Source of the DNA: an uncultured Clostridia bacterium | GTDB taxonomy: Bacteria > Bacillota > Clostridia > TANB77 > CAG-508 | NCBI GenBank assembly: GCA_934177555.1 | Contig: CAKPPL010000001.1 | Location: 1-41,882 of the forward strand | Direction of reading: 5' to 3' | DNA length: 41,882 bases | Part shown: positions 2,511-22,973 of the stretch, one piece after another | Layout: every line of letters starts with the position of its first letter | Numbering within the stretch: the stretch's first letter is position 1 | Notes under the pieces: model-generated | Databases searched by the model: none | What the model saw: the letters and a program-made list of their open reading frames with translations, nothing else | Told to the model about the DNA's origin: nothing | Program-made: the position numbers and the translations under genes

Positions 2511-4034
2511 TTATTTTTCAATTTCATAAAATACAAAATTATCATCTTGATTTAATAATTTATATCCTTTTAATTTTGTTTTTTGTATTATCATATTTAC
2601 TTTAGAATTTTTATATAAAATTACATGTGTAATATTATACTTTTTAAATGTGTCTCCAAAATATTTTGATAAATTTGAACATTCTATAAAATCTGTAAAT
2701 ACATCTACTCCTTCATTAAATTCTGGTGAATATAAATCTGCTCTTGAGTCTATAAATACAGGTATACCTCTATATAATAAATAACTTCCATAATTATATT
2801 CATTATATAATCTTATTGTTGATAAATCTGTTCCTTTTTCTTCAAAATATTTTATTATATAATCACTCATATTTACAGGATATGTTTTTGCATCAATATA
2901 TTCTGATTTTACTTTTCCTTTTATAAAATACATGCTTAATATAATTACTATTCCAGATATCATAAAAGCACCAAATTTACTTGTAAAAGCATTTACTAAT
3001 TTATCATCAATATCTTCTCCAAGCCAAGATACCATCCAATTATATATTAATCTATTTAAAGCTAATACTCCTACTATTGATAGTATTGATGCTTGTCTTT
3101 TGGAATAAAACATTAAAAATATTAATCCACCTAACATAAATAAATCATTTAGCCTAATCTTTGCATTTGTAAATGTTAATACTGCTATTAATATAATTAA
3201 TACACATATTATATCTGTACTATTTATTAATACTAGTGGTTGATGTTCATTTATATTTTGTGTTGTATTACCTTGCATCGTTTTTATTAGATATGTATAT
3301 GGTGTTGTTCCTAATGGTGTTAATAAACCACATAATATACTAATTATCATAAATATAATTAATAATTTTGTTCCATCTTTTTTTATTACTGTTATTTTTT
3401 CTCCTTGTTTTGTTTGATTATTAAATTTTTTTGCTAATTTTTCTTGAATTATTGCTATGACATATTCTCCTATATAAGGTAAATATAATACAAACATGAA
3501 TGGCCATACTGCTAAATGTAAATTAGCTATTAATATTGATATTATTAGTAAACCTACACCATATTTTTTTTGTTTTGTATCAATTAGTTTTTCTATAAAA
3601 AATATTTGTAGTACAAATAATGTATATGATACTAATTGTGCTCTTGCAGCTATATAGTCTCTTAATAAATATAATGAACCTATTGTTAATATAAATGATA
3701 ATACTTGATTTTTAGCCAATTTAGTGTTTGTTTTATATATTGCTATTCCTAAAATTATTGAAAATATACATGTTGATATATATATTCCTGTCATGTTTCC
3801 TATACTATATATTAGATATATCATTACATCATATAACCAATGTGGATATGTATATTCTAGATTTTCATGCCATGAAAATGGGTCTACCATATCAATTTCT
3901 TTATTTTGAATTATATGCTCTCCTATTTTTATTGTATAAAATGTATCATTTTGTAATGTTTTTGGAGATAAGCTTATACAAAATATTGCTATTAGTATTA
4001 TTGCTAATATATTAAATATTTTTTTCTTGTTCAT
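2511..4034 (-). CDS. Polytopic membrane protein with a C-terminal soluble domain; possibly a GT-C-type glycosyltransferase
   Basis: About 10 or more hydrophobic helices. The early loop DTFYTIKIGEHI...DPFSWHE..YTYPHWLYD resembles GT-C/PMT-like loops. The family was not verified. Confidence 0.4.
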   Translation of the reverse strand: MNKKKIFNILAIILIAIFCISLSPKTLQNDTFYTIKIGEHIIQNKEIDMVDPFSWHENLEYTYPHWLYDVMIYLIYSIGNMTGIYISTCIFSIILGIAIYKTNTKLAKNQVLSFILTIGSLYLLRDYIAARAQLVSYTLFVLQIFFIEKLIDTKQKKYGVGLLIISILIANLHLAVWPFMFVLYLPYIGEYVIAIIQEKLAKKFNNQTKQGEKITVIKKDGTKLLIIFMIISILCGLLTPLGTTPYTYLIKTMQGNTTQNINEHQPLVLINSTDIICVLIILIAVLTFTNAKIRLNDLFMLGGLIFLMFYSKRQASILSIVGVLALNRLIYNWMVSWLGEDIDDKLVNAFTSKFGAFMISGIVIILSMYFIKGKVKSEYIDAKTYPVNMSDYIIKYFEEKGTDLSTIRLYNEYNYGSYLLYRGIPVFIDSRADLYSPEFNEGVDVFTDFIECSNLSKYFGDTFKKYNITHVILYKNSKVNMIIQKTKLKGYKLLNQDDNFVFYEIEK

Positions 4035-4121: not shown

Positions 4122-7100
4122 TTATGGATTTGTACATGCTCCACTAGAATTGAAATTATATGTCTTTCCATTTAATGTTATACTTTCATTCTTACACATT
4201 GCACCACTTTCTTTAAAGTAATACCATACTTTATTTAGTTGTAACCATTCTGATTTACACATTGCGCCACTATCTTTAAAATAATACCATATATTATTTA
4301 ATTGTAACCATTTTGATTTATACATATATCCATCATTATCAAAACGATACCATTTATATTCACCATTTGTCATAATTTCTGCCCAATTATTTTTTATCAT
4401 TGAACCATGTGTAAGTTTGTTTTTCTCCATATATTCTTTTCCATCTTTTAGATATGCTGATGTCATTGGAGCATTTCCTATATAATATTTATATTCTGAG
4501 TTCACTTTTCTCCAGCCTTCAAACATTGTTCCATCACTTTTAAAATAAAACCATGAATAATTACTATCACGTGCATTATTTGGTAGATAATGATCTCCTC
4601 CTGTTAATTTTTTACCATTTTCTGTATAGTAATACCATATTGTATAAGTTTTTCCATCTACATCTTTTTTTAGCATATACCAATTATACTTATATGTCGT
4701 TATATTAAATGTATAATTATCATTGTATTTTACCTTAATTTTATATCTTTCACCATTTGAAGCATCTGTATTCTCAGTAGATGTTGCATATTGAGTTCCA
4801 TCAATTATTTCTGGCTTTGAATAACCATAATAAACTTTTATTTTAATTCCTTTATAATCTATTTGTTCATTAGCAATGTATTCTGTTTTATCTGGTCCAG
4901 AATATAATTCTGCTAATACACATTCATTATTTAATTCTATAGTATTTGATTCTTTACTGTTTCCAACCAAATCATATGCTACTGCATATATACTAAATAC
5001 TTTTGAATTTTCTAATATATTTAATATCTTATTATTATTTATTTGTTCAGTTCCTTCTTTGTAAACTTCTTCATCAAATTTTTCATATTTTTCTGCTGTA
5101 TCTTTCTTATAATACCATTCTATTTTTTGTATTTTACTATCTTCATCTTTTCCAATTATATTTATTGACCCCTGTTCATCTTTTGTTTTTGGACTTGCTG
5201 GATTAGCTGTAATTGTAATCTCTGGTGCTGTTTTATCTATATTAGTTATAGTATATGAAACATAATTTCCTGTTTCATCTTCTGAACTTACTAATCTTGC
5301 GTACATTGTTTGCTTATTCTCTGTAAATGTTCTCGTCTCTACTTCTTCCCATATCTTGGAATCTAAACTTGTTTCTATTGTATATCCTAATTCTTTAGTA
5401 CTTGCTGTTAATGTTACACTTCCGTTTGTCCATTCTGTTATATCTGCTTTTATTTCTGCATTTGGTATACTTCCTGTTGTTGCTGTATATCCTTCAAATG
5501 TCTTCATATTTCCTGCTCTATCTTCTACCTGTATACTTATATTATATGTTTTCTCTGACTCTAATCCTGTAATTACATATAATGTTCCATATCTCCACTC
5601 TGACCATGTTGCTCCTTCATCAGTACTAAATCTATATCTATCTATTCCACTCTCTGCATACTCTTTTGTTTGCACTGCATCAAATGCTGTTGCATTTATT
5701 GTTATACTATTTGGTGTTGATTCTATTGATACTTCTACTTTCTCTGGATCTAATTTATCTATTACTGTTACATCATAACTTGTTGTTTTTCCACTTTGTC
5801 CTTCACTATCTACTAGTCTTGCATACATCGTTCCATTTGTTTTAAATGTTATTGGATTTGTTGTACTCCATTTCTCTCCGTCTGTACTTGTTTCTATTGT
5901 ATATCCTATTTTACTTGCACTTGCTGTTACTGTTATATCTTTATTTGTCCACTTCGTCTCACTTGCTTGGAATGTTATATTTCCTTCTGCTGTTGGTACT
6001 CCTTCTGTTGCTAAACTTCTCTCTACTTCTCTTATATTTCCTGCATTATCTTTTATTTGCACTTTTGTTTCATAACTTGTTGCTTGTAATAAATTTTTAA
6101 ATGTATATGAGCCTACTGTTTGCCATTCTGTATAGTTATTTCCTCCATCTATACTGAATCTATATCCTCCTATTCCACTCTTTCCATATTCTACTGTTGA
6201 ATTTCCATCATCTGTCGTTGCTTCTATTTTTATACTATTTGTTGTTACTGTTATTCTAGGATTTACTTCTTGTGGCTCTATTTTATCTATATTTGATACA
6301 TTATAACTTGCATAACTTCCTACTTGCCCTATACTATCTTTTAATCTTGCATACATTGTTCCTTTTTGTCCATATGTTTGTACATTTCCTTCTTCCCAAT
6401 CTGTATCTCCTGTTTTTGTTTCTATTGTGTATTTATCTCCTGTTGTTACTGTTGTTGTTACTACTACTCTATTATTTGTCCATCCACTTGGTTCTGACTT
6501 AAATACTACATTACTATCTTTTACTAGTCCTGGAACTGTTTCTGTTGTTACTCTTTCTTCTTTACTTCCTACATTTCCTGCTTCATCTTTTACTTCTACT
6601 TTTACATTATAATCTGTTGTTTGCTTTAAATCTATAAATGCATATGAAGAACTCTCTTGCCAGTCTGTCCATGTTACTCCTCTATCTTTACTAAATCTAT
6701 ATTCTTTTATTCCACTCTTTCCATAATCTTCTGTCTCTTCTCCGTCTTCACTTATTATTGATACTGTTATACTATGTGTTGTTTTTGTTATTGATGTATT
6801 TTTTATCACTGGACTTATTTTATCTATATTTTCTACTTTTCCTACTAAATCACTATTATCTTTTCCTTCTCCTGTTTCTACTACTTCTCCATTTGCTTTG
6901 TCTAATAATCTTACATATATTTTTTGATTTCTTTTTAATGTTATTGTTCCTGTATATTCTGTCCAGTCATCTACTTCTCCATCTTGTCCTTTTTTCTCTG
7001 TTTTATATTGGATTTCATGTAATTTTGTTGTCTCTACTATTGTTACTTTTGTAGATTCATTTGTCCATCCACTCGGCTCATATCCAAACATTACACTATT

Positions 7101-7487
7101 TCCTTGTAAGTTTCCTCCTGTATCAACATAATACATTCTACCACTTTCTGTATATGTTACTTTATATTGTTCTTTACTTACATCATATCCTAATTCATAT
7201 TTATCTTCTCCTATATATTTATCTAATTCTTTTTTAAAGTCATCTCTTGCACTTATTGTTAACATTGAATGTTGATCTTTCTCTAATGCTCCAACTACTG
7301 CTAAATTTAAGTTTTCTTTTTCTTGCTCTATTTCTGTTACTTCTTTTCCTTTTTGTGCTTGTTTTATTGTACTATTATCTCCTGTTAATGCTGCTATTCC
7401 TATTCCTGCTAATATTATCAATATTACTACTGTTACTGCTAGAGCTATTATGGTTATTCCTTTATTGTTTTGGCATTTGTTTTTCAT
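4122..7487 (-). CDS. Giant modular surface protein: prepilin-like N-terminus, four Ig/FN3-like repeat pairs, C-terminal cell-wall-binding (choline-binding type) repeats
   Basis: N-terminus NNKGITIIALAVTVVILIILAG has a basic leader, Gly, then a ~20-residue hydrophobic helix with Ala instead of Glu at +5. Four diverged ~190-aa repeats follow (SGWTN..GTMYARL..NIDK.P, then YGKSGI..YRFS..W..W...T.Y...V.D.AGN). The C-terminus has WYYF..SGAM..EW repeats. RBS AAAAAGGAGGAAC upstream; co-oriented 32 nt downstream of 7520..9796. Confidence 0.75.
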   Translation of the reverse strand: MKNKCQNNKGITIIALAVTVVILIILAGIGIAALTGDNSTIKQAQKGKEVTEIEQEKENLNLAVVGALEKDQHSMLTISARDDFKKELDKYIGEDKYELGYDVSKEQYKVTYTESGRMYYVDTGGNLQGNSVMFGYEPSGWTNESTKVTIVETTKLHEIQYKTEKKGQDGEVDDWTEYTGTITLKRNQKIYVRLLDKANGEVVETGEGKDNSDLVGKVENIDKISPVIKNTSITKTTHSITVSIISEDGEETEDYGKSGIKEYRFSKDRGVTWTDWQESSSYAFIDLKQTTDYNVKVEVKDEAGNVGSKEERVTTETVPGLVKDSNVVFKSEPSGWTNNRVVVTTTVTTGDKYTIETKTGDTDWEEGNVQTYGQKGTMYARLKDSIGQVGSYASYNVSNIDKIEPQEVNPRITVTTNSIKIEATTDDGNSTVEYGKSGIGGYRFSIDGGNNYTEWQTVGSYTFKNLLQATSYETKVQIKDNAGNIREVERSLATEGVPTAEGNITFQASETKWTNKDITVTASASKIGYTIETSTDGEKWSTTNPITFKTNGTMYARLVDSEGQSGKTTSYDVTVIDKLDPEKVEVSIESTPNSITINATAFDAVQTKEYAESGIDRYRFSTDEGATWSEWRYGTLYVITGLESEKTYNISIQVEDRAGNMKTFEGYTATTGSIPNAEIKADITEWTNGSVTLTASTKELGYTIETSLDSKIWEEVETRTFTENKQTMYARLVSSEDETGNYVSYTITNIDKTAPEITITANPASPKTKDEQGSINIIGKDEDSKIQKIEWYYKKDTAEKYEKFDEEVYKEGTEQINNNKILNILENSKVFSIYAVAYDLVGNSKESNTIELNNECVLAELYSGPDKTEYIANEQIDYKGIKIKVYYGYSKPEIIDGTQYATSTENTDASNGERYKIKVKYNDNYTFNITTYKYNWYMLKKDVDGKTYTIWYYYTENGKKLTGGDHYLPNNARDSNYSWFYFKSDGTMFEGWRKVNSEYKYYIGNAPMTSAYLKDGKEYMEKNKLTHGSMIKNNWAEIMTNGEYKWYRFDNDGYMYKSKWLQLNNIWYYFKDSGAMCKSEWLQLNKVWYYFKESGAMCKNESITLNGKTYNFNSSGACTNP

Positions 7488-7519
7488 AGTTCCTCCTTTT
7501 TTTTAATTTTTATATTTCA

Positions 7520-9796
7520 TTAATATTGATTTATATGATGTGCTACTCCAGAACTACTTGTAGCATTATCACTTGTTTTAACTGATGTTCCACTTATTTG
7601 TACAACTGGTCTAACAGGATAGTCTAATTCATCTTCAGCATTATGTGAAAAATATAAACCATTTCCATACAAATATATTCCTCCATTACGTAATCCAAAA
7701 TGTACATTTATGTTCAAACATGCAACATTACGTGATGCAACCCAATAAGATGGTCTATTACGTAGTGCCTTTGCTCCATCTCCAAAGTTTGTACTATTTA
7801 AATCTGTATCCCAATATGTTTCTGTAATAGTTAATTTTCCACTAGCTGTATTCGATGTATTATATGTTATACCACCTGAATATCCACTATATGTTTGACT
7901 CTTTTCTAGTGTACCTGAGCCAACACTTCCAGAGCTTATTCCTGCACCTTTTTCATATCTATATAAGTCAGGATAATATAAATTACTTGTATATGTCTTG
8001 GTTTTTCCGTATTGAGTTCCTTCATTTTTATAATTATCTCTAGCACTTTTTCCTGCTGTAGTTAACCATTTGTCGAAATCTTCATAATTTACGCTTCTTG
8101 CAGTTATTCCACTTCTACTATATAGAGTTTTACATATGTCATTCATTATATATACTCCATTATTATACCCAGATGCTCCTCTCAAATATAAGATTTCACT
8201 TGTTGTATCTCCAATTAAATCCATACTTCCATTACTATAAATTCTTAATACTTTCCACTTTAATGAATTTCTTTTAAAATCAACTCCGTTATTACTTGAA
8301 CCGGTTATTGATTTTGTAAGCTTACTTTTTGAATATGTAGTTTGTGCTGTAGAATCTGGACTATAGTCTATATAATCACCTATTTCTATTTTTGTTATTG
8401 GTGCTTCTGCAGATTTAGTAGGATTTGTAGCAGCATCTTTTACAATTACATAACATTTTTTACTTTGACTCATTGATTCAGAATATTTATATTCTGCTGT
8501 TCCAATTGATGTTTTTACCGTATTTTTTAATACTCCATCTATATAAAATTGATATTCTGATACCCCTGATGCATTATCTTGTCCTGTAGCAGTTAATGTT
8601 ACATTATATATTCCCTTTTTATATTCATTATTTACACTTATCTTACTTGATGGTGGTGTCTTATCTATATTTTTTACAACATATGATGCATGTTTTCCTG
8701 TTTGACCTGTACTGTCTATTAATCTTGCATACATTGTTCCATTTTGAGTAAATGTTATTGGATTAGTTGTTCCCCATGTTGTTCCATTAGTACTTGTTTG
8801 AAGTGTATATTCTCTTGTACTTGTACTTGCTGTTACTATTACATTTCCATTTGTCCAAGTTGTTTTATCAGCACTTAATGAAACATCAGGTATTGTTTCA
8901 GTTTTTACAACTTTAACTTCACTTATCATGTTTTCTCCATTTTTTACCCATATATAATATGTAGTTGATTGTGGTAAATTTGAAATTGTTTGAGTTATTA
9001 TTGATGTATTATTTGTTATAGTATTAAATGATGTTGGCATATCTGGAGTTTTAGATATTGCATATCCTGATATTCCTGTTTCATTATCATGTGCAATAAA
9101 TGTTATACTATTTGAAGTTGTTTTAGTATCATCTATAATTGGTGGTGTTGAGTCTTTCCAAACTGCATATAATGTTATATTTATTCCATCACTATATGTA
9201 GAGCCAGGTGTATATGATATTTCTTTTGATGTTGAAGCTAGTGACCATCCTAAGAAATCAAATCCTGTTTTAGTTGGTTCTTGTGATGTTATATTAGTAG
9301 GATAACCTACCCTATTATATTGTTCATTTGGAGCATTTTTTCCACTATTTGCAATATATGTTATTACATAATAATCATATGTTGGCTTTTCTGTTTCTTC
9401 TGATAATCCAATTATATATGAATTACCTGTATTTTCAAATATAACTTTTACAAATTTTGTTGCATTTTCTGTAGTTGCTATTGCTTTTGTTTTTTCTTCT
9501 TCTGTTACATTTTCATCAATATAATATTCTTTGGTGTGTTTGCTCATATATGTTTTAAAAGAATCCAATGTTAAGTTACTATTTGCTATTCCTTCATTCA
9601 TTTCCATTTGAGTATATGCTAATCTGATTACATTTTCTTCTTCAGCAGCTGTTTCAATTTTTGCACTTGATTGAGTTTTATCAAGTGTTCCATCATTTTT
9701 TAAAGTTCCTATAGAAATACCAGCCAATATTAATATTACTATTACTGTAATTGCTAGTGCTATTAGTGTTACTCCTGTTTCATATTTTTTCTTCAT
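7520..9796 (-). CDS. Modular prepilin-like surface protein with a C-terminal lectin-like (DGR-target-like) tip domain
   Basis: N-terminus ETGVTLIALAITVIVILILAGISIG. It shares stalk modules with the two paralogs. The C-terminal ~290 aa end in ..RPSYWVASRNV...DYPVRPVVQI, the same SYW.(G/A)S ... VRPV(I/V) frame as the DGR variable region at 41645-41755. Confidence 0.75.
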   Translation of the reverse strand: MKKKYETGVTLIALAITVIVILILAGISIGTLKNDGTLDKTQSSAKIETAAEEENVIRLAYTQMEMNEGIANSNLTLDSFKTYMSKHTKEYYIDENVTEEEKTKAIATTENATKFVKVIFENTGNSYIIGLSEETEKPTYDYYVITYIANSGKNAPNEQYNRVGYPTNITSQEPTKTGFDFLGWSLASTSKEISYTPGSTYSDGINITLYAVWKDSTPPIIDDTKTTSNSITFIAHDNETGISGYAISKTPDMPTSFNTITNNTSIITQTISNLPQSTTYYIWVKNGENMISEVKVVKTETIPDVSLSADKTTWTNGNVIVTASTSTREYTLQTSTNGTTWGTTNPITFTQNGTMYARLIDSTGQTGKHASYVVKNIDKTPPSSKISVNNEYKKGIYNVTLTATGQDNASGVSEYQFYIDGVLKNTVKTSIGTAEYKYSESMSQSKKCYVIVKDAATNPTKSAEAPITKIEIGDYIDYSPDSTAQTTYSKSKLTKSITGSSNNGVDFKRNSLKWKVLRIYSNGSMDLIGDTTSEILYLRGASGYNNGVYIMNDICKTLYSRSGITARSVNYEDFDKWLTTAGKSARDNYKNEGTQYGKTKTYTSNLYYPDLYRYEKGAGISSGSVGSGTLEKSQTYSGYSGGITYNTSNTASGKLTITETYWDTDLNSTNFGDGAKALRNRPSYWVASRNVACLNINVHFGLRNGGIYLYGNGLYFSHNAEDELDYPVRPVVQISGTSVKTSDNATSSSGVAHHINQY
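9297..9703. repeat. Left arm of a ~407-bp near-perfect inverted repeat (partner 10046..10452)
   Basis: Base x pairs with base 19749-x. Checked block by block, 9361-9600 is identical to the reverse complement of 10149-10388. I found about 5 mismatches over the whole arm. Confidence 0.9.
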
Positions 9797-9821
9797 TAGT
9801 TCCTCCCTTTTTTACACTTTA

Positions 9822-9850
9822 ATTATAATTCTTTTTCGCTTTTTTGTAAA
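9822..9850 (-). promoter_or_regulatory. Sigma-A-like promoter for 7520..9796 (and the downstream 4122..7487)
   Basis: On the minus strand: TTTACA, 17 nt, TATAAT, upstream of RBS AAGGGAGGAAC. Confidence 0.5.
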
Positions 9851-9895
9851 TATAATTTTTTTAATTATTATATAAATAAATTACTTATTATAGTA

Positions 9896-9924
9896 TTTAC
9901 AAATGACTTCAAATCAATTAAAAT
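9896..9924 (+). promoter_or_regulatory. Sigma-A-like promoter for 9953..12490
   Basis: TTTACA, 17 nt, TAAAAT, upstream of RBS AAAGGAGG. Confidence 0.45.
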
Positions 9925-9952
9925 AATTATATATAAAAGGAGGTATTTACAA

Positions 9953-12490
9953 ATGAAAAGTAATAAAGAAAAAGGTGTTACTTTAATTGCTTTAGCTATA
10001 ACTGTTATAGTAATTCTTATATTAGCAGGAATATCAATAGGTACTCTAAAAAATGATGGAACACTTGATAAAACTCAATCGAGTTCAAAAATTGAAACAG
10101 CTGCTGAAGAAGAAAATGTAATCAGACTAGCATATACTCAAATGGAAATGAATGAAGGAATAGCAAATAGTAACTTAACATTGGATTCTTTTAAAACATA
10201 TATGAGCAAACACACCAAAGAATATTATATTGATGAAAATGTAACAGAAGAAGAAAAAACAAAAGCAATAGCAACTACAGAAAATGCAACAAAATTTGTA
10301 AAAGTTATATTTGAAAATACAGGTAATTCATATATAATTGGATTATCAGAAGAAACAGAAAAGCCAACATATGATTATTATGTAATAACATATGATGCAA
10401 ATAGTGGAAAAAATGCTCCAAATGAACAATATAATAGGGTAGGTTATCCTACAATAATTGCTTCTGATGAACCAAATAAAGATAATTATAATTTTGAAGG
10501 TTGGGCAACATCTTCTTCATCAAAAGAAGTATCATATACACCAGGTTCTACATATAATGGTGGAATAGATATAACATTATATGCAGTTTGGAAAGATGCA
10601 ACACCACCAATTATAGATCTTGTTACAGCTACATCATCTAGTATAACGATACAAGCCCATGATAATGAAACAGGAATATCAGGATATGCAATATCAACCA
10701 CAAATGAAACACCAATAAAATTTATAAGTGTAACTAATCAAACATCTATTACACAAGTAATTTCTCCATTAACTCAATCAACTACATATTATTTATGGGT
10801 AAAAAATGGAGATGGCTTAATAAGTGAAGTGAAATCTATAAAAACAGAAACAATCCCTGATGTTTCATTAAGTGCTGATAAAACAACATGGACAAATGGA
10901 AATGTAGTCGTAACAGCTAAATCTAATGGTTCAACTACAGGATATACAATACAATCTTGTACAGATAATAAAAGTTGGAAAAATGCAAATTCTATAACAT
11001 TTATTCAAAATGGTACAATGTATGCTAGATTAATTGATAGTTCTGGACAAGTTGGAAAAACTGCATCATATAATGTAACAATAATTGATAAAACTGCACC
11101 AAAATCTGCTACACCAAAATTAAGTGCAACTACAAATAGTATTAAAACAGAAATAAGTACAGATGACTCAGCAGCAACTTCTCAATATGGAAAAAGTGGA
11201 ATATCTGGATATAGATTTAGTAGTAATAATGGTAGCTCTTATAGTGCTTGGCAATCTAAAGGCTCATATACATTTACAAGTTTAGCTCAAAAAACAAAAT
11301 ATAATATAGCAATTCAAATAAAAGATATAGCTGGTAATATAACAACTGTAACTAGTTCAACTACGACAGGCGCTGTACCTGGTGTAAGCTTATCTGCAAG
11401 CACAGGATCTTGGACAAATCAAAATTTAACTGTAAAAGCAACTGCAAATAGCAGTGGGTATACATTACAAACAAGTACAGATGGTAAAACTTGGGGAACA
11501 ACAAATCCTATAACATTTTCTCAAAATGGTAAAATGTATGCTAGATTAAAAGATAGTACTGGTCAAACCGGAAATCAAGCTTCTTATTCAGTAACAAATA
11601 TTGATAAATCTGCACCAAATAGCTTTACACCTTCAGCTGGTCTAATAACTGATGATGCTAGAATGGTTTTATCTGGTAGTACAACAGATAAAAGTGCAAC
11701 TACTCAATATGGATGTAGTGGAATATCTGGATATAGATTTAGTACTAATAATGGTAGTTCTTACACTGGATGGCAATCTAGTGGAAGATATAAGTTGTCT
11801 GATCTTCCATCAGCTACAACTTATAATATAAAAATGCAAGTAAAAGATAATGCTGGTAATATAACAACATCAAATGTTAAAACTATAACATTTATTTTAA
11901 GTAGTAATGGCTATACAAATACAAGTTTAACTAGTTCATATAATATTATGGAAGCTGTATATCCTTGTGGACGTGACTGGTTAGGAAATGGTTCTGGTGT
12001 TATGGTTCGTGACAATTATGGTAATAGAGTAAGTCTTGAAAATACTGCTACTTATTCAAGTTTTGCAAATTCAAGTAAAAGAAATAGAGCTGTTGGACTT
12101 ATATTTAATAATCAAATAAATGTAACTGATTACAAATATATGCATTTCTTGATTTGGTCTGATTTCTATATTAATAATAGCAAATATGCAAATAATGTAT
12201 ATGCTATTTCTGGAATGCAAGTAGGTATTTATAATGGGCTAAATTCAGATAAAAACTATTATGGGTATGGAGTAGTCCAAAGAGGACAATGCTTAGCATC
12301 TCAAGAATATGGAATTTATAGAAGTTCAGAAGGTTCTTCTCCAGAAGAAAAAGTTGGTACAAACATTCATACTTTAAATATACAAAATATATCTGGTAGC
12401 TACTGGGTTGGTACACATATTTATACTAATTTAAATGCATATGATGGATATAGCAGAGCCGGAGTTTATGCAGTATGGATGGAAAAATAA
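9953..12490 (+). CDS. Modular prepilin-like surface protein with a third, unassigned C-terminal tip domain
   Basis: N-terminus EKGVTLIALAITVIVILILAGISIG. Residues ~30-165 are almost identical to 7520..9796, followed by the same Ig/FN3-like modules. The last ~200 aa (..YPCGRDWLGNGSGVMV...YWVGTHIYTN...GVYAVWMEK) resemble neither paralog tip. Confidence 0.75.
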   Translation: MKSNKEKGVTLIALAITVIVILILAGISIGTLKNDGTLDKTQSSSKIETAAEEENVIRLAYTQMEMNEGIANSNLTLDSFKTYMSKHTKEYYIDENVTEEEKTKAIATTENATKFVKVIFENTGNSYIIGLSEETEKPTYDYYVITYDANSGKNAPNEQYNRVGYPTIIASDEPNKDNYNFEGWATSSSSKEVSYTPGSTYNGGIDITLYAVWKDATPPIIDLVTATSSSITIQAHDNETGISGYAISTTNETPIKFISVTNQTSITQVISPLTQSTTYYLWVKNGDGLISEVKSIKTETIPDVSLSADKTTWTNGNVVVTAKSNGSTTGYTIQSCTDNKSWKNANSITFIQNGTMYARLIDSSGQVGKTASYNVTIIDKTAPKSATPKLSATTNSIKTEISTDDSAATSQYGKSGISGYRFSSNNGSSYSAWQSKGSYTFTSLAQKTKYNIAIQIKDIAGNITTVTSSTTTGAVPGVSLSASTGSWTNQNLTVKATANSSGYTLQTSTDGKTWGTTNPITFSQNGKMYARLKDSTGQTGNQASYSVTNIDKSAPNSFTPSAGLITDDARMVLSGSTTDKSATTQYGCSGISGYRFSTNNGSSYTGWQSSGRYKLSDLPSATTYNIKMQVKDNAGNITTSNVKTITFILSSNGYTNTSLTSSYNIMEAVYPCGRDWLGNGSGVMVRDNYGNRVSLENTATYSSFANSSKRNRAVGLIFNNQINVTDYKYMHFLIWSDFYINNSKYANNVYAISGMQVGIYNGLNSDKNYYGYGVVQRGQCLASQEYGIYRSSEGSSPEEKVGTNIHTLNIQNISGSYWVGTHIYTNLNAYDGYSRAGVYAVWMEK
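10046..10452. repeat. Right arm of the ~407-bp inverted repeat (partner 9297..9703)
   Basis: See the left arm. Identity drops sharply inside 10046 (synonymous differences only) and outside 10452. Confidence 0.9.
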
Positions 12491-12536: not shown

Positions 12537-13238
12537 TTATATAGCTTCTTGATTTTCATTTTCTTCTTTTTTCTCAGAATCTTCTTCATTTAGTAATTCT
12601 AAACTACATACTGAAACTTCATAAGCTACTTTAATTTCTGATGTTCCATCTTCATATTTTTTCTCATATTGTCTTGATTGAACTCTACCTATTATTTTTA
12701 CTTGTGCCCCAACTTCTAAGTTTTGGCAGAATCTAGCATTTCTTCCCCATGCTATTGTTGGAATATAGTCTGATTTATTATATGCTCTATTTACTGCTAA
12801 TAATAAATCTGATATTTCTCTTCCAAATGGTGTTTGTCTATAAATAGGTTTTTTACATACAAAACCTATAAGTACAACTTCGTTTGTTGTTTCTTCCTTT
12901 TTTACCATTTCATTTTCTTCTTCATTTTCTGGTTCATTTACTTCTAATATGTCTTTTGCAAACACTGTTAATATTAATCTGTTTTTTTCATTTTCATAAC
13001 TATTGTATGATCTGAATTGACCTTTAATTAATAATTTTTTACCTTCTGTTAACATATCATCAGTGATTAATCTTTCTGATATTGTTATTGGTATAATGTC
13101 TGCGTTTCCACTTAAACGTGGTATTGCTAAATCAAATGTGTAAAATTTTTCTCCATAAATTTCGTGGCTAAATCTTTTTTCGCCTGTAACCTTTCCTACT
13201 AATGTTAAGTAGTTGTTTTCTAAATAATTTGTATCCAA
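12537..13238 (-). CDS. Tandem OB-fold single-stranded DNA-binding-like protein with an acidic tail
   Basis: Two SSB-like OB halves (NYLTLVGKVTGE...LLIKGQFRSY and NEVVLIGFVCKKP...VKIIGRVQSRQYE) separated by an acidic linker. Acidic C-terminus EEDSEKKEENENQEAI. Confidence 0.6.
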   Translation of the reverse strand: MDTNYLENNYLTLVGKVTGEKRFSHEIYGEKFYTFDLAIPRLSGNADIIPITISERLITDDMLTEGKKLLIKGQFRSYNSYENEKNRLILTVFAKDILEVNEPENEEENEMVKKEETTNEVVLIGFVCKKPIYRQTPFGREISDLLLAVNRAYNKSDYIPTIAWGRNARFCQNLEVGAQVKIIGRVQSRQYEKKYEDGTSEIKVAYEVSVCSLELLNEEDSEKKEENENQEAI

Positions 13239-18053: not shown

Positions 18054-18794
18054 TTATTTATTTGCTACAGCTTTAGCAATAAATCTCTTAGTAGCATGTG
18101 GATTACCATTTTCATAATAACATGTTATTAAAGTAATTTCTTTTCTCCCATTAGTTAATTGACTAGTACAAGAATTATCATATGGGTCAATAATATCAGT
18201 TTCATAGACAAAATAATCTAAAGTCTCTCCATTCACATCAGATATTTTTACAACATCTCCTATATTTATTTTAGGTAGATTACTAAAGAATTTATTATTT
18301 TTGTAATTGTGTCCTATTACAACCATATTTCCAACTTCATTAGGATATGAACCCCAATATCTATTTAAAGAGATTTTTAATAAAGCCGTAGAACTTGTTG
18401 ATAATATAGGATATTCTATATTTAAACTAGGAATATTTAATTTTCCAATAATATTATATGTTTCTCCATTACTCGCAGTATATGAAATCTCTTTTGTACT
18501 TTTCTCTTCTTGTTCACTAATCTGTTGCTGTTCAGGCTCATTTTCTATTTCTTCTGTTTCTTCGTGATTATTTTCTTCTTGATTTTCAGCTAATTCAACA
18601 ACAGGTATATTATCACTAATATTTTCTTGTTCTTTTGCAACTTCTGTTACATCATTAGCATATGTTTTAAAAGAAAATGCTATATAAATACTAATGATAA
18701 TTAATGGGAAAAATATTACAATAATTGGTACTGAAATTTTCTTTTTTCTGGTCTTTGATTCATTATTATCATCAATTTGTATTATTTGATTCAT
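18054..18794 (-). CDS. Sortase-family transpeptidase, membrane-anchored with an acidic linker
   Basis: N-terminal TM helix and a Glu-rich linker. Catalytic-domain motifs VVIGHNYKN (His) and ITLITCYYE (TLxTC Cys). Class not assigned. Confidence 0.8.
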   Translation of the reverse strand: MNQIIQIDDNNESKTRKKKISVPIIVIFFPLIIISIYIAFSFKTYANDVTEVAKEQENISDNIPVVELAENQEENNHEETEEIENEPEQQQISEQEEKSTKEISYTASNGETYNIIGKLNIPSLNIEYPILSTSSTALLKISLNRYWGSYPNEVGNMVVIGHNYKNNKFFSNLPKINIGDVVKISDVNGETLDYFVYETDIIDPYDNSCTSQLTNGRKEITLITCYYENGNPHATKRFIAKAVANK

Positions 18795-18805
18795 AAACTC
18801 TCCTT

Positions 18806-18840
18806 AAAAAAAGAGAAAGTAGACACCTACTTCCTCTTTT
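18806..18840 (-). terminator. Stem-loop between the LPXTG gene and the sortase gene (terminator/attenuator)
   Basis: On the minus strand: agaggaagtag-gtgt-ctactttctct followed by T7, then RBS AAGGAGAG of the sortase gene. Confidence 0.55.
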
Positions 18841-18847
18841 GAGGACT

Positions 18848-20362
18848 CTATATGCCTCTTAATTTATTATATTTATTATAAATTATTACAGATGTGCCTA
18901 TTAATAAGATTATTGCAAAAGCTAAACCAACACCTATTCCTGTTTGTGGTAACTTTCCTGTTGCTGTTGTATTATCTCCTTTTGAAGTACTTGGTTTAAC
19001 AGTACTATCTCCTGAATTATTATTACCATTAGATGTGTTGCTATTATTGTTGCTTCCATTACTTGTATCTGTTATATCTCCATTTGCATACACAAAATCT
19101 TCACTATTATATTGAATTGTTAATGCTGGGCAACTTAATACTGCTACATTACCAGCTGTATCTTTGATGCTTCCACCAGAAAAGTCTACTGTAGTCATAG
19201 TTCCTTTATCTGTACTTTTTACAGTATATATATATGTAATTTTATCTCCTGCAACAGTTCCTTCTGTTACTTTTATATTTTTACCATCTCCAAATTTTAT
19301 TGTTAGAGTAGGTACTTCTGTTCCTTGTATATTTTCACTAAATGTAACATTTATTACTAATTTTGCTCCTGCAGGAACAATATACATACTTCTATTTGTA
19401 TCTCTATTATACTTCATTACACTTGCATATGTAACTTGTATACTTTTAACAATAGGTGATGTAATGTCTGTACCTACATCTGCTTTATCCCAATTTGCAA
19501 TATAGTCAAAAGGAATTTTATTAGTTTCTGCATATTCTTTTGATGTCATTCCATCATTACCATAAATTGTTAGATTATCACAATCTCTAAATGCTCCTAT
19601 ACCAATACTTACAACACTATCTGGAATTAATACTTTTTTTAAGTTTTTGCAACTTCCAAAAGCACCATAACCATATAAATTTTCATATTTTCCCTCAATA
19701 GTTGTTACTGAATCTGGTAAAATAACACTTGTAAGTCCACTACATCCCTCAAAAGTAGACTCTGCTATTTTAGTAAGATTTTTTGAAAGAGTTAATGATT
19801 TTAACCCACTACATTCTCTAAATGCTGCTGTACCTATAGTTGTCACACTATCTGGAATTACTAAGCTCTTTAATCCTGTACATCCCTCAAAAGCATATTC
19901 GTCTATTGAAGTAATATGATTTGAAAAGTCTATTGATGTTACTCCAGAACATCCATAAAATGAAGATCTTCCTATTTTTGTTACACTATCTGGAAGTGTT
20001 AGACTTTTTAAACCTGTACAATTATAAAATGCATAATTTCCTATAGTTGTTATTGTATTTGGTATTGTAATATTTGTAATTCCAGCACAATCTTTAAATG
20101 CTCCTTTTATACTACTTCCCTCTAATAGTGAAATTACTGTTTTTCCATCAATAGTAGATGGTATTGTAACTGCACCTATTTTTCCTGTTGTTTTACAGTA
20201 TAATTCTATAACATTATTATTGGAATCTAATTGATAACTCCATTCTATACCTTGCTCTGTATCTGAATATGTGTATTCTGTAGCAGCATTTGAAATATTT
20301 GGTATAAAAAATAATACTATTCCAACAAATAAAATCATAATTAAATATTTCGTTTTTCTCAT
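18848..20362 (-). CDS. Cell-wall-anchored leucine-rich-repeat (BspA-type) surface protein with an Ig-like domain and LPXTG sorting signal
   Basis: Signal peptide. Repeated IP.SVT.IG..AF..C.GL.S units. C-terminal LPQTG, then a hydrophobic helix and a KLRG basic tail. Confidence 0.85.
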   Translation of the reverse strand: MRKTKYLIMILFVGIVLFFIPNISNAATEYTYSDTEQGIEWSYQLDSNNNVIELYCKTTGKIGAVTIPSTIDGKTVISLLEGSSIKGAFKDCAGITNITIPNTITTIGNYAFYNCTGLKSLTLPDSVTKIGRSSFYGCSGVTSIDFSNHITSIDEYAFEGCTGLKSLVIPDSVTTIGTAAFRECSGLKSLTLSKNLTKIAESTFEGCSGLTSVILPDSVTTIEGKYENLYGYGAFGSCKNLKKVLIPDSVVSIGIGAFRDCDNLTIYGNDGMTSKEYAETNKIPFDYIANWDKADVGTDITSPIVKSIQVTYASVMKYNRDTNRSMYIVPAGAKLVINVTFSENIQGTEVPTLTIKFGDGKNIKVTEGTVAGDKITYIYTVKSTDKGTMTTVDFSGGSIKDTAGNVAVLSCPALTIQYNSEDFVYANGDITDTSNGSNNNSNTSNGNNNSGDSTVKPSTSKGDNTTATGKLPQTGIGVGLAFAIILLIGTSVIIYNKYNKLRGI

Positions 20363-20390: not shown

Positions 20391-21824
20391 TTATTTAATA
20401 TTTGTAAATGAATTAAACATTGCTTCACCTATACTTTGACCACTAACTTTAGTATTATTAGCACCTTGTATTTTTGAATTTGAAAGATTTTTTTCATGTT
20501 TAATTAAATTATCAATCTTACTTAAATTAAATAATCTTTTCTTTGTTTCTGTTTCATGATGGTGTCTTGCATTTGAATTTCTATATCTAAAATACATTAT
20601 AAAGAAATATATAAATCCAGATAATAAGAATAACCATTCATAATCAAAATCTACAACTAAAGTAGCCAACCATCCTAATAGTTCTATAATACAAGAAACT
20701 CCAAATAATTTTGGCATATGTATTGGAACACTACCCATTGTTTCCTTTGTTCTTGCATTTACAGCAACATAATGTAATACACTATTATTTTCACCTTTTT
20801 TCTGTTGATAACTATATAACCATACTGGTAAATATGCTGTTTTCCATTGTCTACCTTTTACATCTAATTGTTCTGTTTGCCAATTAACACCACGGTCATA
20901 TTGTTTCAAAGTATCATTTGCAGCAAATCTTGCTATATCTTTACTTTGTCTATCAACTATAGGTTTTAAATCTTCAATATTTGTATCACGTCTTTCTGAA
21001 GTATATCCTTTCAAATAATTTGCATTATATTTTACACTATTTTCAATATCAAATGGCATAATAGAATTTATAATATTATTAGTCTTATTAGATTGTTTTT
21101 TTAACTTATCTGAACTTGATTCAACTGTTAGTCCTTCTATTGTTAAATCAAATTCACGTTCAACTTCATATAAATCTGCATCATAATATGTTTGACTATT
21201 ACTTCCACTTCCTCTAGTGTATCTTCTAACTTCATGTTCTCCACGTCCATAAAAATGAGCATGTGAATTAACATCAACTACCATATATGGAAAATAAACT
21301 CCCATTATATTATCTGTTGTAAATTCTTGTCTAAATTTTGGATGAGCAAAAAACTTTCTTTTTCCAACAAAATTTTCAATTTGTTTTTTTGCATCTGCTT
21401 TTGTTAGATTAAATGGTAACACTACATCAGGAATAGTACCATTTGGAATTTGTTGATTAACAGATAATGTATTTCTACACCAGTGACATCTAGCTTGTGT
21501 TGTCTCTGATGTATCTATAACAACTTCTGCTCCACAACTGCTACATCTGAAAGTCATTACACTTTGTGTATCTTCAACAATATCTTGTGTACCTGACCCC
21601 ATTATTTCACCTTCAAGTTTTGATATATCTGTTTCCATCCCCTGTATTTTCTCAGGTTCAAATTCGTGTCTACAAAAATTACATCTCAATTTACCTGTTT
21701 TAGCATTTATAGATATGTCTGTAGACCCACATTGAGGACATTTATTTTGTCCATCTTCTGAACCTATATCTGTTTTTACAATTTTGGGCTCATCATTATT
21801 ATTTAATAATTGATTATCTGCCAC
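20391..21824 (-). CDS. Double zinc-ribbon protein with C-terminal TM helices (YdjG-like)
   Basis: Two zinc-ribbon motifs: CPQCGS..x..CNFCRHEF and CSSCGA..x..CHWCRN. Two hydrophobic helices lie near the C-terminus. It sits 3 nt downstream of the SPFH gene. Confidence 0.55.
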   Translation of the reverse strand: MADNQLLNNNDEPKIVKTDIGSEDGQNKCPQCGSTDISINAKTGKLRCNFCRHEFEPEKIQGMETDISKLEGEIMGSGTQDIVEDTQSVMTFRCSSCGAEVVIDTSETTQARCHWCRNTLSVNQQIPNGTIPDVVLPFNLTKADAKKQIENFVGKRKFFAHPKFRQEFTTDNIMGVYFPYMVVDVNSHAHFYGRGEHEVRRYTRGSGSNSQTYYDADLYEVEREFDLTIEGLTVESSSDKLKKQSNKTNNIINSIMPFDIENSVKYNANYLKGYTSERRDTNIEDLKPIVDRQSKDIARFAANDTLKQYDRGVNWQTEQLDVKGRQWKTAYLPVWLYSYQQKKGENNSVLHYVAVNARTKETMGSVPIHMPKLFGVSCIIELLGWLATLVVDFDYEWLFLLSGFIYFFIMYFRYRNSNARHHHETETKKRLFNLSKIDNLIKHEKNLSNSKIQGANNTKVSGQSIGEAMFNSFTNIK

Positions 21825-21827
21825 CTT

Positions 21828-22973
21828 CTACACCCCCAAAAGTTTTTTCTTTTGTTCATCATAATCTTCTTGTGTAATAAGACCTGCATCTAGCATTTCT
21901 TTATATTTTTTTAATTTTTCTACTGGATCTTCTTGTGGTTGTTGAACAGGTTGTTGTAATCCACCCATTGCTCCACCAACTGCATTCATTCCCATTCCCA
22001 TAAAAGCCATGTTTCCGGCTCCACCGTTTTCACCAGCTGCTTGGAATCCACGAGCTACAGATTGTTGCATAAATGAATTTCCTCTTGCACCTGATAATGC
22101 ATCTGCTTTTTTTACATCACTTAATAATGTTTTTGTATCTTCATCATATTCAATAGCTTGTATTGCAACTTTAACAATTTCAAGACCTCTATCTGTTTTC
22201 CATTGATAAGCTTCTTCTACTGCTTGTGATAAAGATTTTGCAAATCCAACTTGATCTCCTTGTATTCTTGTTATACGGTTTCCTTTATCAGGATCATTTG
22301 TATAATTTGAAAATGCTGCAGATAAACTACTTACAACTTCATTAAATAATTGTGCTCCTGCATCATTATCCATATCTGCAAAATCAAATATTTCTCCATT
22401 TGATAAATAAACTGCAGGTACAAAATTTTTAATAAATAATATTGGATCAGTTATTTTTAATGTATATGTTCCTCTTGTTACAGCTCCTACTTGTGCATTT
22501 AAATATGCATCATCCCAATAAATTTCAGCTTGTGTACCAAATTTATTATTTGGTATTTCTTTTAAATTAACATAAAATGCTGTTTGTTGAGAACCTGGCT
22601 GTCCTCCAAATTTGAATCTTTCCCAACTTTGACCAATTAAAGATGATACTATTCCATCTCCTGCAAAAATTGATTTTGCATTTGGATCATCTGATGAAAA
22701 TATAAATCCTCCTGTTTCTGTAATACATCCTGTTATTGCACCTTCTTGCATTGTAATAAGAGCCATTCCTTCTGGTACAACAATTTTACTTCCATTTGAA
22801 ATAATATTGTTTGAACCTTTAGTATTTTCTCCCCTTCCTGCATTTGTGCCTTGTGGTACAGCTGGATAAATACCAGCTGTTGCTGGAACTCCTGACATTG
22901 GTACTATGAAATCTTTCCATTGATCAGCAAATGTTCCTCCTATTGCTCCTGTGAATGCTTTAATAAAGCCCAT
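21828..22973 (-). CDS. SPFH/virion-core-like protein with a C-terminal SHOCT domain (YdjI-like)
   Basis: N-terminus MGFIKAF.GAIGGTFADQWKDF is typical of the YdjI/COG4260 family. A Gly/Met-rich linker precedes a SHOCT-like tail VEKLKKYKEMLDAGLITQEDYDEQKKKLLGV. Confidence 0.6.
   Translation of the reverse strand: MGFIKAFTGAIGGTFADQWKDFIVPMSGVPATAGIYPAVPQGTNAGRGENTKGSNNIISNGSKIVVPEGMALITMQEGAITGCITETGGFIFSSDDPNAKSIFAGDGIVSSLIGQSWERFKFGGQPGSQQTAFYVNLKEIPNNKFGTQAEIYWDDAYLNAQVGAVTRGTYTLKITDPILFIKNFVPAVYLSNGEIFDFADMDNDAGAQLFNEVVSSLSAAFSNYTNDPDKGNRITRIQGDQVGFAKSLSQAVEEAYQWKTDRGLEIVKVAIQAIEYDEDTKTLLSDVKKADALSGARGNSFMQQSVARGFQAAGENGGAGNMAFMGMGMNAVGGAMGGLQQPVQQPQEDPVEKLKKYKEMLDAGLITQEDYDEQKKKLLGV

Follow-up and report, generated by a model that had tools for sequence, protein, structure and literature searches.

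Three large proteins with a Glu5-less pilin-like N-terminus, a shared Ig/FN3-like stalk and different C-terminal domains in an uncultured Clostridia bacterium

The window, i.e. the whole stretch of 41,882 nucleotides of an uncultured Clostridia bacterium that was analysed, contains three neighbouring genes, defined as ORFs and by their translations, that encode proteins of 1121 aa (positions 4122-7487, minus strand), 758 aa (7520-9796, minus strand) and 845 aa (9953-12490, plus strand), coordinates and lengths being exactly as stated in the original prediction. As also described there, all three start with a short basic leader, a Gly and a hydrophobic segment of 22-24 residues with an Ala at position +5, the N-termini being MKNKCQNNKG/ITIIALAVTVVILIILAG... 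(1121-aa protein), MKKKYETG/VTLIALAITVIVILILAG... (758-aa protein) and MKSNKEKG/VTLIALAITVIVILILAG... (845-aa protein), with the slash following the Gly. The alternating Ig/FN3-like modules, ~176 aa or 528 nt per module pair, are indeed common to all three proteins, and whereas this stalk is shared, the C-terminal domain differs in each. In the 1121-aa protein, modules of the type WTN...NGTMYARL...NIDK..P begin at about residues 141, 336, 513 and 686, in the 758-aa protein at about residue 314 and in the 845-aa protein at about residues 313 and 487; these modules alternate with FN3-like YGKSGI.GYRFS modules. A repeat search revealed direct DNA repeats with a period of ~520-530 nt that mirror the protein modules, and a head-to-head duplication in the form of an 827-nt inverted repeat, 86% complementary and with its arms 96 nt apart. 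This repeat (I1 extended by I2; 9000-10749, no strand assigned) covers the 5' parts of the 758-aa and 845-aa genes and 30 nt upstream of each.

In the 1121-aa protein the class III-like leader MKNKCQNNKG, helix alpha1N with Ala +5 and a small pilin-like head make up residues 1-132 (7092-7487, minus strand), as indicated by sequence and by alignment to operon-encoded pilins. Residues 133-862 (4902-7091, minus strand) comprise four WTN Ig-like modules alternating with FN3-like modules, and an extra Ig-like domain; direct DNA repeats in this part of the gene have a period of 519-537 nt, Pfam matches of the stalk to FN3/Big families are below threshold, and homologues carry CHB_HEX_C, Fn3_assoc and fn3. 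The C-terminal part, residues 863-1121 (4125-4901, minus strand), consists of a linker that we labelled Big_3-like by eye and, from residue ~940 on, of the choline-binding cell-wall repeats that had been proposed, which are recognized by Pfam as Choline_bind_3 (E = 1.3e-13, 51 bits vs. a cut-off of 27) and Choline_bind_1 (2e-7, above cut-off) and match choline-binding proteins in the PDB with E-values down to 9e-19, the matches including LytA, Cpl-1, CbpF and toxin A repeats.

The 758-aa protein has its leader MKKKYETG, alpha1N with Ala5 and pilin-like head in residues 1-138 (9383-9796, minus strand; AlphaFold2 model and operon-pilin alignment), followed by Flg_new, an FN3-like module, one WTN module and an Ig-like module in residues 139-465 (8402-9382, minus strand). 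The corresponding first part of the 845-aa protein, residues 1-138 (9953-10366, plus strand) with leader MKSNKEKG, alpha1N with Ala5 and pilin-like head, is a near-copy that lies inside the inverted repeat shared by both genes; residues 139-655 (10367-11917, plus strand) contain Flg_new, an FN3-like module and two WTN/FN3-like pairs, mirrored by direct repeats D5, D6 and D8 with a period of 516-522 nt. Flg_new (Listeria-Bacteroides repeat), which was absent from the original prediction, covers residues 143-212 of both proteins (Pfam E-values of 6.4e-10 in the 758-aa and 1.4e-10 in the 845-aa protein).

The C-terminal domain of the 758-aa protein (residues 466-758; 7523-8401, minus strand), with motifs GYNNG...C, YW.ASR and RPVV, is unassigned. 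A lectin-like/FGE-sulfatase label had been suggested, which we could not confirm: sequence searches of Pfam and PDB gave no match, the AlphaFold model is poor (pLDDT 49.9) and a Foldseek search with this model returned nothing. The domain is the commonest end domain among the family members compared, terminating homologues P0006, P0007, P0014, P0019, P0032, P0075, P0086 and P0091 and occurring in proteins of loci L062, L064, L072 and L073. The C-terminal domain of the 845-aa protein (residues 656-845; 11918-12487, plus strand) is likewise unassigned and without a match in Pfam or PDB searches; of all proteins retrieved, only P0002, encoded on a metagenome contig and 99% identical, is homologous to it.

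The N-terminus had been read as a class III (prepilin) signal, and our comparisons point to a divergent form of such a signal, in register with canonical type IV pilins. In the family consensus G/ITLIALVITIIVLLILAG.S.I, residues L6, I15, L16, A17, I19 and I21 occupy canonical pilin positions. Among 131 homologues found there are 40 distinct N-termini, in which G-1 (38/40), T+2 (39/40), L+6 (40/40), T+9 (38/40) and I+15 (39/40) are conserved, while position +5 is occupied by A, S, T or P and in no case by E; judged by these sequences, the recurrence of the motif is not due to chance. Moreover, the hydrophobic segment is nearly invariant among proteins that are elsewhere less than 35% identical, as would be expected of subunits with a common filament core or a common processing enzyme, but not of an unspecific membrane anchor. 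The N-terminal ~135 residues can be aligned over their full length with pilins of 129-160 aa from MAGs of related gut Clostridia, those of the 1121-aa and 758-aa proteins with pilins of 129-154 aa. When the profile of the N-terminal module was compared with the PDB, six sequence matches were obtained, including MshA, S. sanguinis PilE1, geopilin and PilA, all of them weak (E = 0.018-2.2); the top matches are type IV pilins only, and the Ala of the family aligns with their Glu5. An AlphaFold2 model of residues 1-147 of the 758-aa protein (pLDDT 75.5) shows helices 7-34 and 37-68 followed by a small alpha/beta head, i.e. a "lollipop", for which Foldseek found no significant pilin match (best E = 0.76). 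Pfam N_methyl is below threshold in all three window proteins (13.5 bits, E = 0.056 for the 845-aa protein vs. a cut-off of 21.2) and, of 54 N-termini from large family members, no more than 13 come about to the cut-off (E <= 2e-4). A search with a profile of the N-terminus yielded 22,880 clusters (50% identity, E <= 1e-10), a very large family, most of which escapes standard annotation.

As predicted, the window contains no pilB, pilC or pilD (tblastn; Pfam of flanking genes). The DNA of the source organism is known only from contigs of at most 50 kb, on which the three genes are unlinked to a pilus operon and have housekeeping genes as neighbours. Matching pilus machinery and peptidases exist in relatives. 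Pilin-sized genes with Ala5 lie inside complete type IV pilus operons at five loci (L005, L028, L046, L048 and L084), in the order PilM/N-like, two small membrane proteins, Ala5 pilin(s), PilD-like, two minor pilin-like genes, PilB, PilT and PilC, with 1 to 10 copies of the Ala5 gene directly upstream of the PilD-like gene. In the L028 operon, Pfam recognizes A24_N_bact (1e-30), T2SSE with MshEN (2e-102) and a second T2SSE (9e-44), and two small pilins exceed the N_methyl cut-off (23.0 and 22.3 bits vs. 21.2); the operon PilC matches GspF (1.9e-52) and also T2SSF. By alignment, the N-terminal module of the window proteins is homologous to these operon-encoded pilins. One MAG, CANQTU, combines a pilus operon (L005) with dispersed larger Ala5 proteins (L003, L008), and a 1.565-Mb contig, which bears the closest out-of-species relatives (P0005, P0008 and P0009), encodes large Ala5 proteins of 512, 703 and 762 aa 2-8 kb downstream of a Peptidase_A24 gene, whose 254-aa product has a canonical GLGDVK motif.

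We propose, with a probability of roughly 55%, that the products of the three genes are modular type IV pilins and belong to a lineage-specific pilus system of uncultured low-GC gut Clostridia whose pilins lack Glu5; they are most likely pilus-linked adhesins. Their architecture, a pilin module with grafted modules, is in keeping with the original prediction. We infer cleavage, incorporation into a filament, at its tip or in its shaft, and a function in adhesion. The precursor would enter the membrane by its class III signal, and an A24-family prepilin peptidase would cut off the 8-10-residue leader after the Gly. The ~125-residue pilin module, which probably copies the major-type pilin of the same lineage, would then dock the protein into a pilus assembled by a PilB/PilC/PilM-N machinery, and the Ig/FN3-like stalk of up to ~8 modules would keep the binding domain, i.e. 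the choline-binding repeats, the YW.ASR...RPVV domain that is common in the family or a domain specific to the species, clear of the filament or the cell surface. Several observations count against this proposal: pilus and peptidase genes are absent from the window and the genes lie amid housekeeping genes, the N_methyl and Foldseek scores are low, the operon PilD-like proteins have no recognisable Peptidase_A24 domain and LxLD in place of GxGD, and proteins of 85-125 kDa are sterically awkward inside a filament.

It is possible, but distinctly less probable, that the proteins are membrane-anchored adhesins without any filament, in which the pilin-derived N-terminus, cleaved or not, is a mere anchor, the stalk crosses the thick Gram-positive wall, the end domains work at the surface and the 1121-aa protein is tied by its choline-binding repeats to teichoic acids of the same cell. 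Such repeats are classical anchors that normally hold a protein on the producer's own wall, and a cell-surface location suits them no less than one on a pilus. The lack of linkage to pilus genes also agrees with this explanation. Large family members mostly sit among housekeeping genes, with many large paralogues scattered over each genome; up to eight Ig-like modules would suit wall crossing, and in other homologues, e.g. P0040 and P0045, these stalk modules follow an ordinary Sec signal peptide. A plain anchor, however, leaves unexplained the near-invariance of the hydrophobic segment, the preservation of the whole ~125-residue pilin head, which can still be aligned to operon pilins, and the three large paralogues near the A24 peptidase.

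We regard it as unlikely that the proteins are cargo of a pseudopilus-type display or secretion system, in which a PilB/PilC machine, instead of building long pili with these proteins in them, would draw the processed proteins out of the membrane and drive them across the wall into a short surface assembly or release them. The size and diversity of the family (22,880 clusters) and the fact that most members in GTDB loci are large suggest that the pilin module may be a general export or display tag. A precedent is the archaeal "bindosome", whose sugar-binding proteins, which are not pilins, bear class III signals (PMC3047682). The operons, however, encode a retraction ATPase of the PilT type and pilin-sized paralogues in tandem arrays of up to ten, which are hallmarks of true dynamic type IVa pili. 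A chance or convergent resemblance of an ordinary uncleaved signal anchor to a prepilin signal, which the subthreshold N_methyl scores, the missing Glu5 and the Foldseek result might suggest, is very improbable and largely refuted by sequence comparison, as this N-terminus scores above the N_methyl cut-off in small operon-encoded paralogues, about reaches it in the 13 large members, is in register with solved pilins and adjoins a PilD-like gene in five independent operons.

The loss of Glu5 has a different meaning from the one first given to it. It had been taken as the mark of a GspK-like filament cap, but the pilin-sized operon paralogues all lack Glu5, too, and 1.18 Mb of family neighbourhoods contain no Glu5 pilin. 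As the pilin-sized operon genes have this same N-terminus, Ala5 does not support a GspK-like cap; it is rather a lineage-wide trait of the major-type pilin and uninformative on tip location. [quoted passage not shown] Sequence similarity to GspK was not found, nor were H/I/J-like neighbours of the window genes.

In the large CofB/TcpB minor pilins of type IVb pili, too, a linker connects the pilin module to beta-rich domains, and a role in adhesion or initiation at the tip has been proposed, but they belong to a diderm type IVb system, carry no more than two extra domains and have their genes within the pilus operon (PMC8179133); no sequence similarity to them was detected in the three proteins. 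Pneumococcal-type choline-binding proteins (LytA, CbpF, PspA/PspC) share the choline-binding repeats that make up the last ~180 residues of the 1121-aa protein, but they have a Sec signal peptide and are held by the repeats only, whereas the 1121-aa protein has a pilin-type anchor at its other end. The Tad-like pilus cluster of the gut order TANB77 (PMC11680825) likewise comes from uncultured, low-GC gut Clostridia with reduced genomes and includes pilin-like proteins that have a single membrane helix and a short leader in the cytoplasm, but it is of the TadZ/CpaF/TadBC type, in contrast to the PilM/N, PilD, PilB, PilT, PilC type of the operons in related MAGs. Modular pilins, onto which adhesive domains are grafted, are already well established and exemplified by S. 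sanguinis PilB (vWA module) and PilC (lectin module), which are ~50 kDa in size, have one extra module and Glu5, are encoded in the pil locus and assemble with PilA, which lacks Glu5, into a complex at the tip (PMC8179133, PMC9934059). The window proteins had been called far larger than these examples; all three are bigger than the ~50-kDa PilB/PilC, but only the 1121-aa protein surpasses the maximum of 860 residues in a published InterPro survey (PMC8179133), the 758-aa and 845-aa proteins being below it. Like PilB/PilC, they come from a monoderm host and combine an N-terminal pilin module with grafted domains that are not pilus-specific and a presumed role in adhesion. Unlike PilB/PilC, they have 758-1121 aa with 5 to ~10 extra modules, lack Glu5 and are encoded outside a pilus locus, and their pilin module resembles the major-type pilin of the lineage rather than a dedicated minor pilin.

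The three open reading frames lie exactly where the original prediction placed them and have the predicted sizes, i.e. those for the 1121-aa and the 758-aa protein are located at positions 4122-7487 and 7520-9796 on the minus strand and that for the 845-aa protein at 9953-12490 on the plus strand. The description of their N-termini also holds: a Lys-rich leader, a Gly, a hydrophobic segment and an Ala at +5 (counted after the predicted cleavage Gly) can be found in all three proteins. The leaders comprise 8-10 residues with 3-4 Lys and are followed by G and 22-24 hydrophobic residues, corresponding to the short basic leader, Gly and stretch of ~20 hydrophobic residues of a class III signal. 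Among bacterial type IV pilins Glu5 is treated as an almost universal hallmark and as the key to subunit docking. The Glu or Asp usual at +5 of a pilin is replaced by Ala in all three window proteins; in type IV pilins Glu5 is "often, but not always" present (PMC10191384).

The 758-aa protein has 131 homologues, nearly all metagenomic, and the 40 different N-termini that these comprise have in common a remarkably constant stretch with the consensus K-G, then, after the predicted cleavage, I-T-L-I-A-L-V-I-T-I-I-V-L-L-I-L-A-G-I-S-I, and then L-x-G-D-N-G-I-L-x-K-A. G-1, T+2, L+6, T+9, I+15 and L+16 are each present in 37-40 of these 40 N-termini, and position +5 is occupied by A, S, T or P, never by E. 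If the canonical pilin helix (G followed by FTLIELLVVIAIIGILAAIAIP) is placed in register, L6 and I15-L16-A17-x-I19-x-I21 coincide. Moreover, a profile of the N-terminal module gives six weak matches (E 0.018-2.2) among PDB sequences, five of which are type IV pilins (MshA, S. sanguinis PilE1, two geopilin entries and PilA), and the family Ala is aligned onto their Glu5. For residues 1-147 of the 758-aa protein AlphaFold2 predicts a long helix (residues 7-68, broken at 35-36) and a small alpha/beta head (pLDDT 75.5); a Foldseek search of the PDB with this model yielded no significant match (best E 0.76).

Scanning one genome per GTDB species with the pattern G[IV]TLIAL[VA][IVL]T listed more than 600 matches, which is a lower bound, and 450 were confirmed. 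All 80 loci kept derive from MAGs of uncultured gut Clostridia with 24-32% G+C, e.g. Clostridium sp. CAG:440, CAG:343 and 26_21. The 1.18 Mb of family loci contain 119 ORFs with the Ala5 motif, ranging from ~130 to 960 residues, and no genuine Glu5 pilin. At five loci (L005, L028, L046, L048 and L084) small Ala5 proteins of 129-160 aa are encoded inside complete type IV pilus operons, in the order PilM/N-like (~540 aa), two membrane proteins (245 and 150 aa), between one and ten Ala5 pilins, PilD-like, two minor pilin-like proteins (the first of them having Asp at +5), PilB, PilT and PilC. Taking L028 as an example, the PilD-like protein matches A24_N_bact (1e-30), PilB T2SSE plus MshEN (2e-102), PilT T2SSE (9e-44) and PilC GspF/T2SSF (1.9e-52), and two small Ala5 pilins exceed the N_methyl cut-off of 21.2 bits (23.0 and 22.3 bits). 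The multi-copy, pilin-sized Ala5 genes directly upstream of the PilD-like gene presumably encode the major pilins. Of the two minor pilin-like genes, the one closest behind the PilD-like gene (L028 11404-11850; L005 11315-11572; L046 11324-11779; L048 12118-12549; L084 10831-11238) carries the sole acidic +5 residue among the pilin-like genes of the five operons (KGITNID, NGFTGID, KGFTGID, KGFTIQD and KGATGVD, respectively). At L048, ten tandem Ala5 pilin paralogues of ~170 aa (4835-11098) directly precede the PilD-like gene; being identical over the N-terminal ~45 residues and diverging in the heads, they resemble an array for pilin variation. At L084, on a 1.63-Mb contig, an inserted IS110-family transposase gene (8518-9681) separates the PilD-like gene from the two Ala5 pilin genes of the operon.

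In the 1121-aa and the 758-aa protein, the first ~135 residues align end to end with the stand-alone operon pilins; the alignment takes in the helix that follows the GDNG turn as well as the terminal beta-hairpin "Y.V..NGY..VD..G". This alignment and the presence of grafted domains support the proposal that the window encodes pilin-like, modular proteins. The suggestion that a missing Glu5 is the mark of a GspK-like cap displayed at the tip, in contrast, is not supported, as the pilin-sized operon paralogues have Ala5, too. For a GspK-like cap, Glu5 would be lost in the cap subunit and kept in the other pilins of the system, and the cap would be encoded together with H/I/J minor pilins, whereas H/I/J-like neighbours are absent from the window. 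Since the major-type operon pilins share Ala5, this residue does not discriminate tip from shaft. The pilin modules of the window proteins resemble the major-type pilin and not the two operon minor pilins, so that incorporation into the shaft is conceivable.

Behind the pilin module, the common stalk is borne out by the proteins as well as by the DNA: "WTN...NGTMYARL...NIDK..P" modules (four in the 1121-aa, one in the 758-aa and two in the 845-aa protein) alternate with FN3-like "YGKSGI.GYRFS" modules, and direct DNA repeats with a period of ~520-530 nt match them. Flg_new (Listeria-Bacteroides repeat) is significant at residues 143-212 of the 758-aa and 845-aa proteins. As predicted, the 1121-aa protein ends in a genuine array of choline-binding repeats, with Choline_bind_3 (51.1 bits, cut-off 27) and Choline_bind_1 (31.4 bits, cut-off 20.5) above the Pfam cut-offs and PDB matches down to 9e-19; by the tandem-repeat criterion the protein would be classed as a choline-binding protein. 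The C-terminal domains of the 758-aa and 845-aa proteins have no match in Pfam, NCBIfam or PDB sequences. That of the 758-aa protein (residues 466-758) is the commonest end module among the family members compared, recurring directly after the pilin module in ~490-aa proteins (P0006, P0007) and elsewhere after longer stalks. It had been labelled lectin-like, which stays a guess, since its fold is not confidently predicted (AlphaFold pLDDT 49.9) and Foldseek, PDB and Pfam profile searches were all empty. The sole homologue of the 845-aa end domain among the fetched proteins is a 99%-identical copy (P0002). Stalk modules also occur behind other N-termini (P0018, P0022, P0024 with ~1200 aa, P0040, P0045 and similar homologues), some of them ordinary Sec signal peptides, and one group begins with MKLQHLAIIFVIIMLPISMVVAYY; thus, the stalk is common to differently targeted surface proteins.

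A modular pilin combines a pilin module with domains that are not pilus-specific, here Flg_new and choline-binding repeats above Pfam cut-offs and Ig/FN3-like repeats. Judged by their sequences, the window proteins would thus be modular pilins in the sense of Raynaud et al. 2021 (PMC8179133), a membership that in turn depends on the criteria for type IV pilins. We favour, with a probability of roughly 55%, that they undergo prepilin-type processing and then dock onto the lineage's type IV pilus via the pilin module, the stalk presenting the binding domain. The choline-binding repeats, the long stalks and the scattered genomic positions would also suit wall-spanning adhesins that use the N-terminus as a membrane anchor only, a reading that we consider rather unlikely given that the whole pilin module and the sequence of the helix are conserved. 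Display or secretion of cargo by a pseudopilus-type, bindosome-like system is improbable, and a chance resemblance to a prepilin signal is effectively excluded.

Pilus or peptidase genes are absent from the window, whose organism is seen on no contig longer than 50 kb. Outside the species, the nearest relatives of the window proteins (P0005, P0008 and P0009; they share the WTN modules and have 32-41% identity) are encoded on a 1.565-Mb contig, where three large Ala5 genes (512, 703 and 762 aa) lie 2-8 kb downstream of the gene for a stand-alone 254-aa A24 peptidase (L086 2146-2910, ERZ27273536 contig_1159). This protein matches Peptidase_A24, has the canonical GLGDVK motif, lacks an N-terminal A24_N_bact domain and is encoded between a HAD phosphatase and pepP/efp. 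A related MAG, CANQTU, combines a pilus operon (L005) with dispersed larger Ala5 proteins (L003, L008) and also contains a homologue of the 254-aa peptidase that starts at a contig edge (L003 12165-12344), suggesting two A24-type enzymes per genome. The operon PilD-like genes (L028 10599-11414; L005 10453-11307; L046 10496-11311; L048 11280-12101; L084 10001-10816) encode proteins with a strong N-terminal A24_N_bact domain, which a review links to N-methylation (PMC10191384). The Peptidase_A24 domain was undetected in these proteins and is precomputed in none of the 120 listed homologues. These best 120 all have at least 68% identity, and the lengths of their contigs showed no overlap with those of contigs carrying giant family members. 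D126 and D176 (L028 numbering) are at least 97% conserved, the second Asp being part of LxLD, not GxGD, and comparison with PDB sequences gave no informative match.

The window (G+C ~26%) has the flanking gene content of an ordinary chromosome of a spore-forming Firmicute (mreBCD, a PBP2-type transpeptidase, minC, spoIIE, radC, rluD), and these flanks lend no support to a prophage or mobile-element origin of the three Ala5 genes. On its downstream side the 1121-aa gene adjoins a gene for a 507-aa polytopic membrane protein (2511-4034, minus strand) without a match in a Pfam search. At a related locus (L087) the gene for a 571-aa homologue of this protein directly adjoins the SSB gene with no Ala5 gene in between; thus, in the window the three Ala5 genes appear to have been inserted between the SSB gene (12537-13238) and the 507-aa gene. 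A role of the 507-aa protein as functional partner, e.g. as pilin glycosyltransferase, is unsupported, the adjacency looking like synteny around the insertion. The 758-aa and 845-aa genes are a head-to-head duplication: two inverted repeat arms of 827 nt (9000-9826 and 9923-10749; 86% complementary, 96 nt between the arms), with an extension at 8829-9014/10732-10917, reach 30 nt upstream of the start codon in both genes. Recombination between the arms would invert the short promoter-carrying segment between the two genes. With three paralogues, a common stalk, differing ends and this duplication, the window exemplifies the diversification of an adhesin repertoire. It also encodes a sortase (Pfam 3e-23) and, next to it, a BspA-type leucine-rich-repeat protein of 504 aa with LPQTG and a membrane helix at its end (18054-20362, minus strand), i.e. 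a conventional wall-anchoring route. A gene pair of unclear role (20391-22973, minus strand) encodes a 477-aa protein, whose N-terminal part contains zinc ribbons and whose C-terminal part contains membrane helices, and a SHOCT-tailed SPFH/Band-7 protein of 381 aa.

The family is very large and poorly annotated. A 70-position profile of the N-terminus, searched against 1.84 billion representatives of clusters at 50% identity, matched 34,372 clusters at E<=1e-3 and 22,880 at E<=1e-10, with A (146), S (2) or G (1) at +5 among the best 150 representatives. Pfam N_methyl (PF07963/IPR012902, cut-off 21.2) scores 13.5 bits for the 845-aa protein and does not match the 1121-aa and 758-aa proteins; of the N-termini of 54 large members, 13 come up to roughly the cut-off and 41 fail, and among the 120 homologues listed for the 758-aa protein there is no precomputed N_methyl match. 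In NCBIfam, the operon pilins have no above-threshold match. Motif-based surveys thus miss most of the Ala5 family. An InterPro-based survey of modular pilins found >1,200 proteins with at most 860 residues (PMC8179133), a size exceeded by the 1121-aa protein and by relatives that share its N-terminus and have 1253-1313 residues (P0011, P0098, P0104), all of which such a survey would miss. As N_methyl fails on most of the large members tested, the published number and size of modular pilins are probably underestimates.

Taken together, we tentatively entertain the possibility, doubtful as a whole, of type IV pili whose major-type subunits all lack Glu5 (having Ala5 and an invariant Thr9) throughout a widespread clade of uncultured gut Clostridia, with the major-pilin module as universal carrier, decoration by giant adhesins and possibly split processing. 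The filament core would then lack the salt bridge between Glu5 and the N-terminus, and the carrier module would be grafted onto tens of thousands of cargo proteins of up to ~1300 residues. Interchangeable giant adhesins, encoded chromosome-wide, would decorate the pilus, possibly over its whole length, and processing might be divided between the stand-alone canonical A24 peptidase and the operon PilD-like protein, which keeps A24_N_bact and has lost the GxGD motif. A lineage with Ala5 in operon-encoded, pilin-sized subunits offers a natural test of the Glu5 docking model. Moreover, the family is found in abundant, uncultured gut Clostridia with reduced genomes, whose surface proteins likely mediate contact with other bacteria, mucus or the host; for one clade of this kind, an association of pilin-like proteins with the response to immunotherapy has already been described.

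Modular pilins are already known, hence this is no new kind of system. New are the Glu5-less class III signal common to an entire pilus system, the use of a major-type pilin module as carrier, the very large size and modularity of these proteins and the extent of a poorly annotated family in uncultured gut Clostridia. A Tad-like pilus cluster was described in 2024 for the uncultured gut order TANB77 (PMC11680825), and its machinery differs from that of the operons found here.
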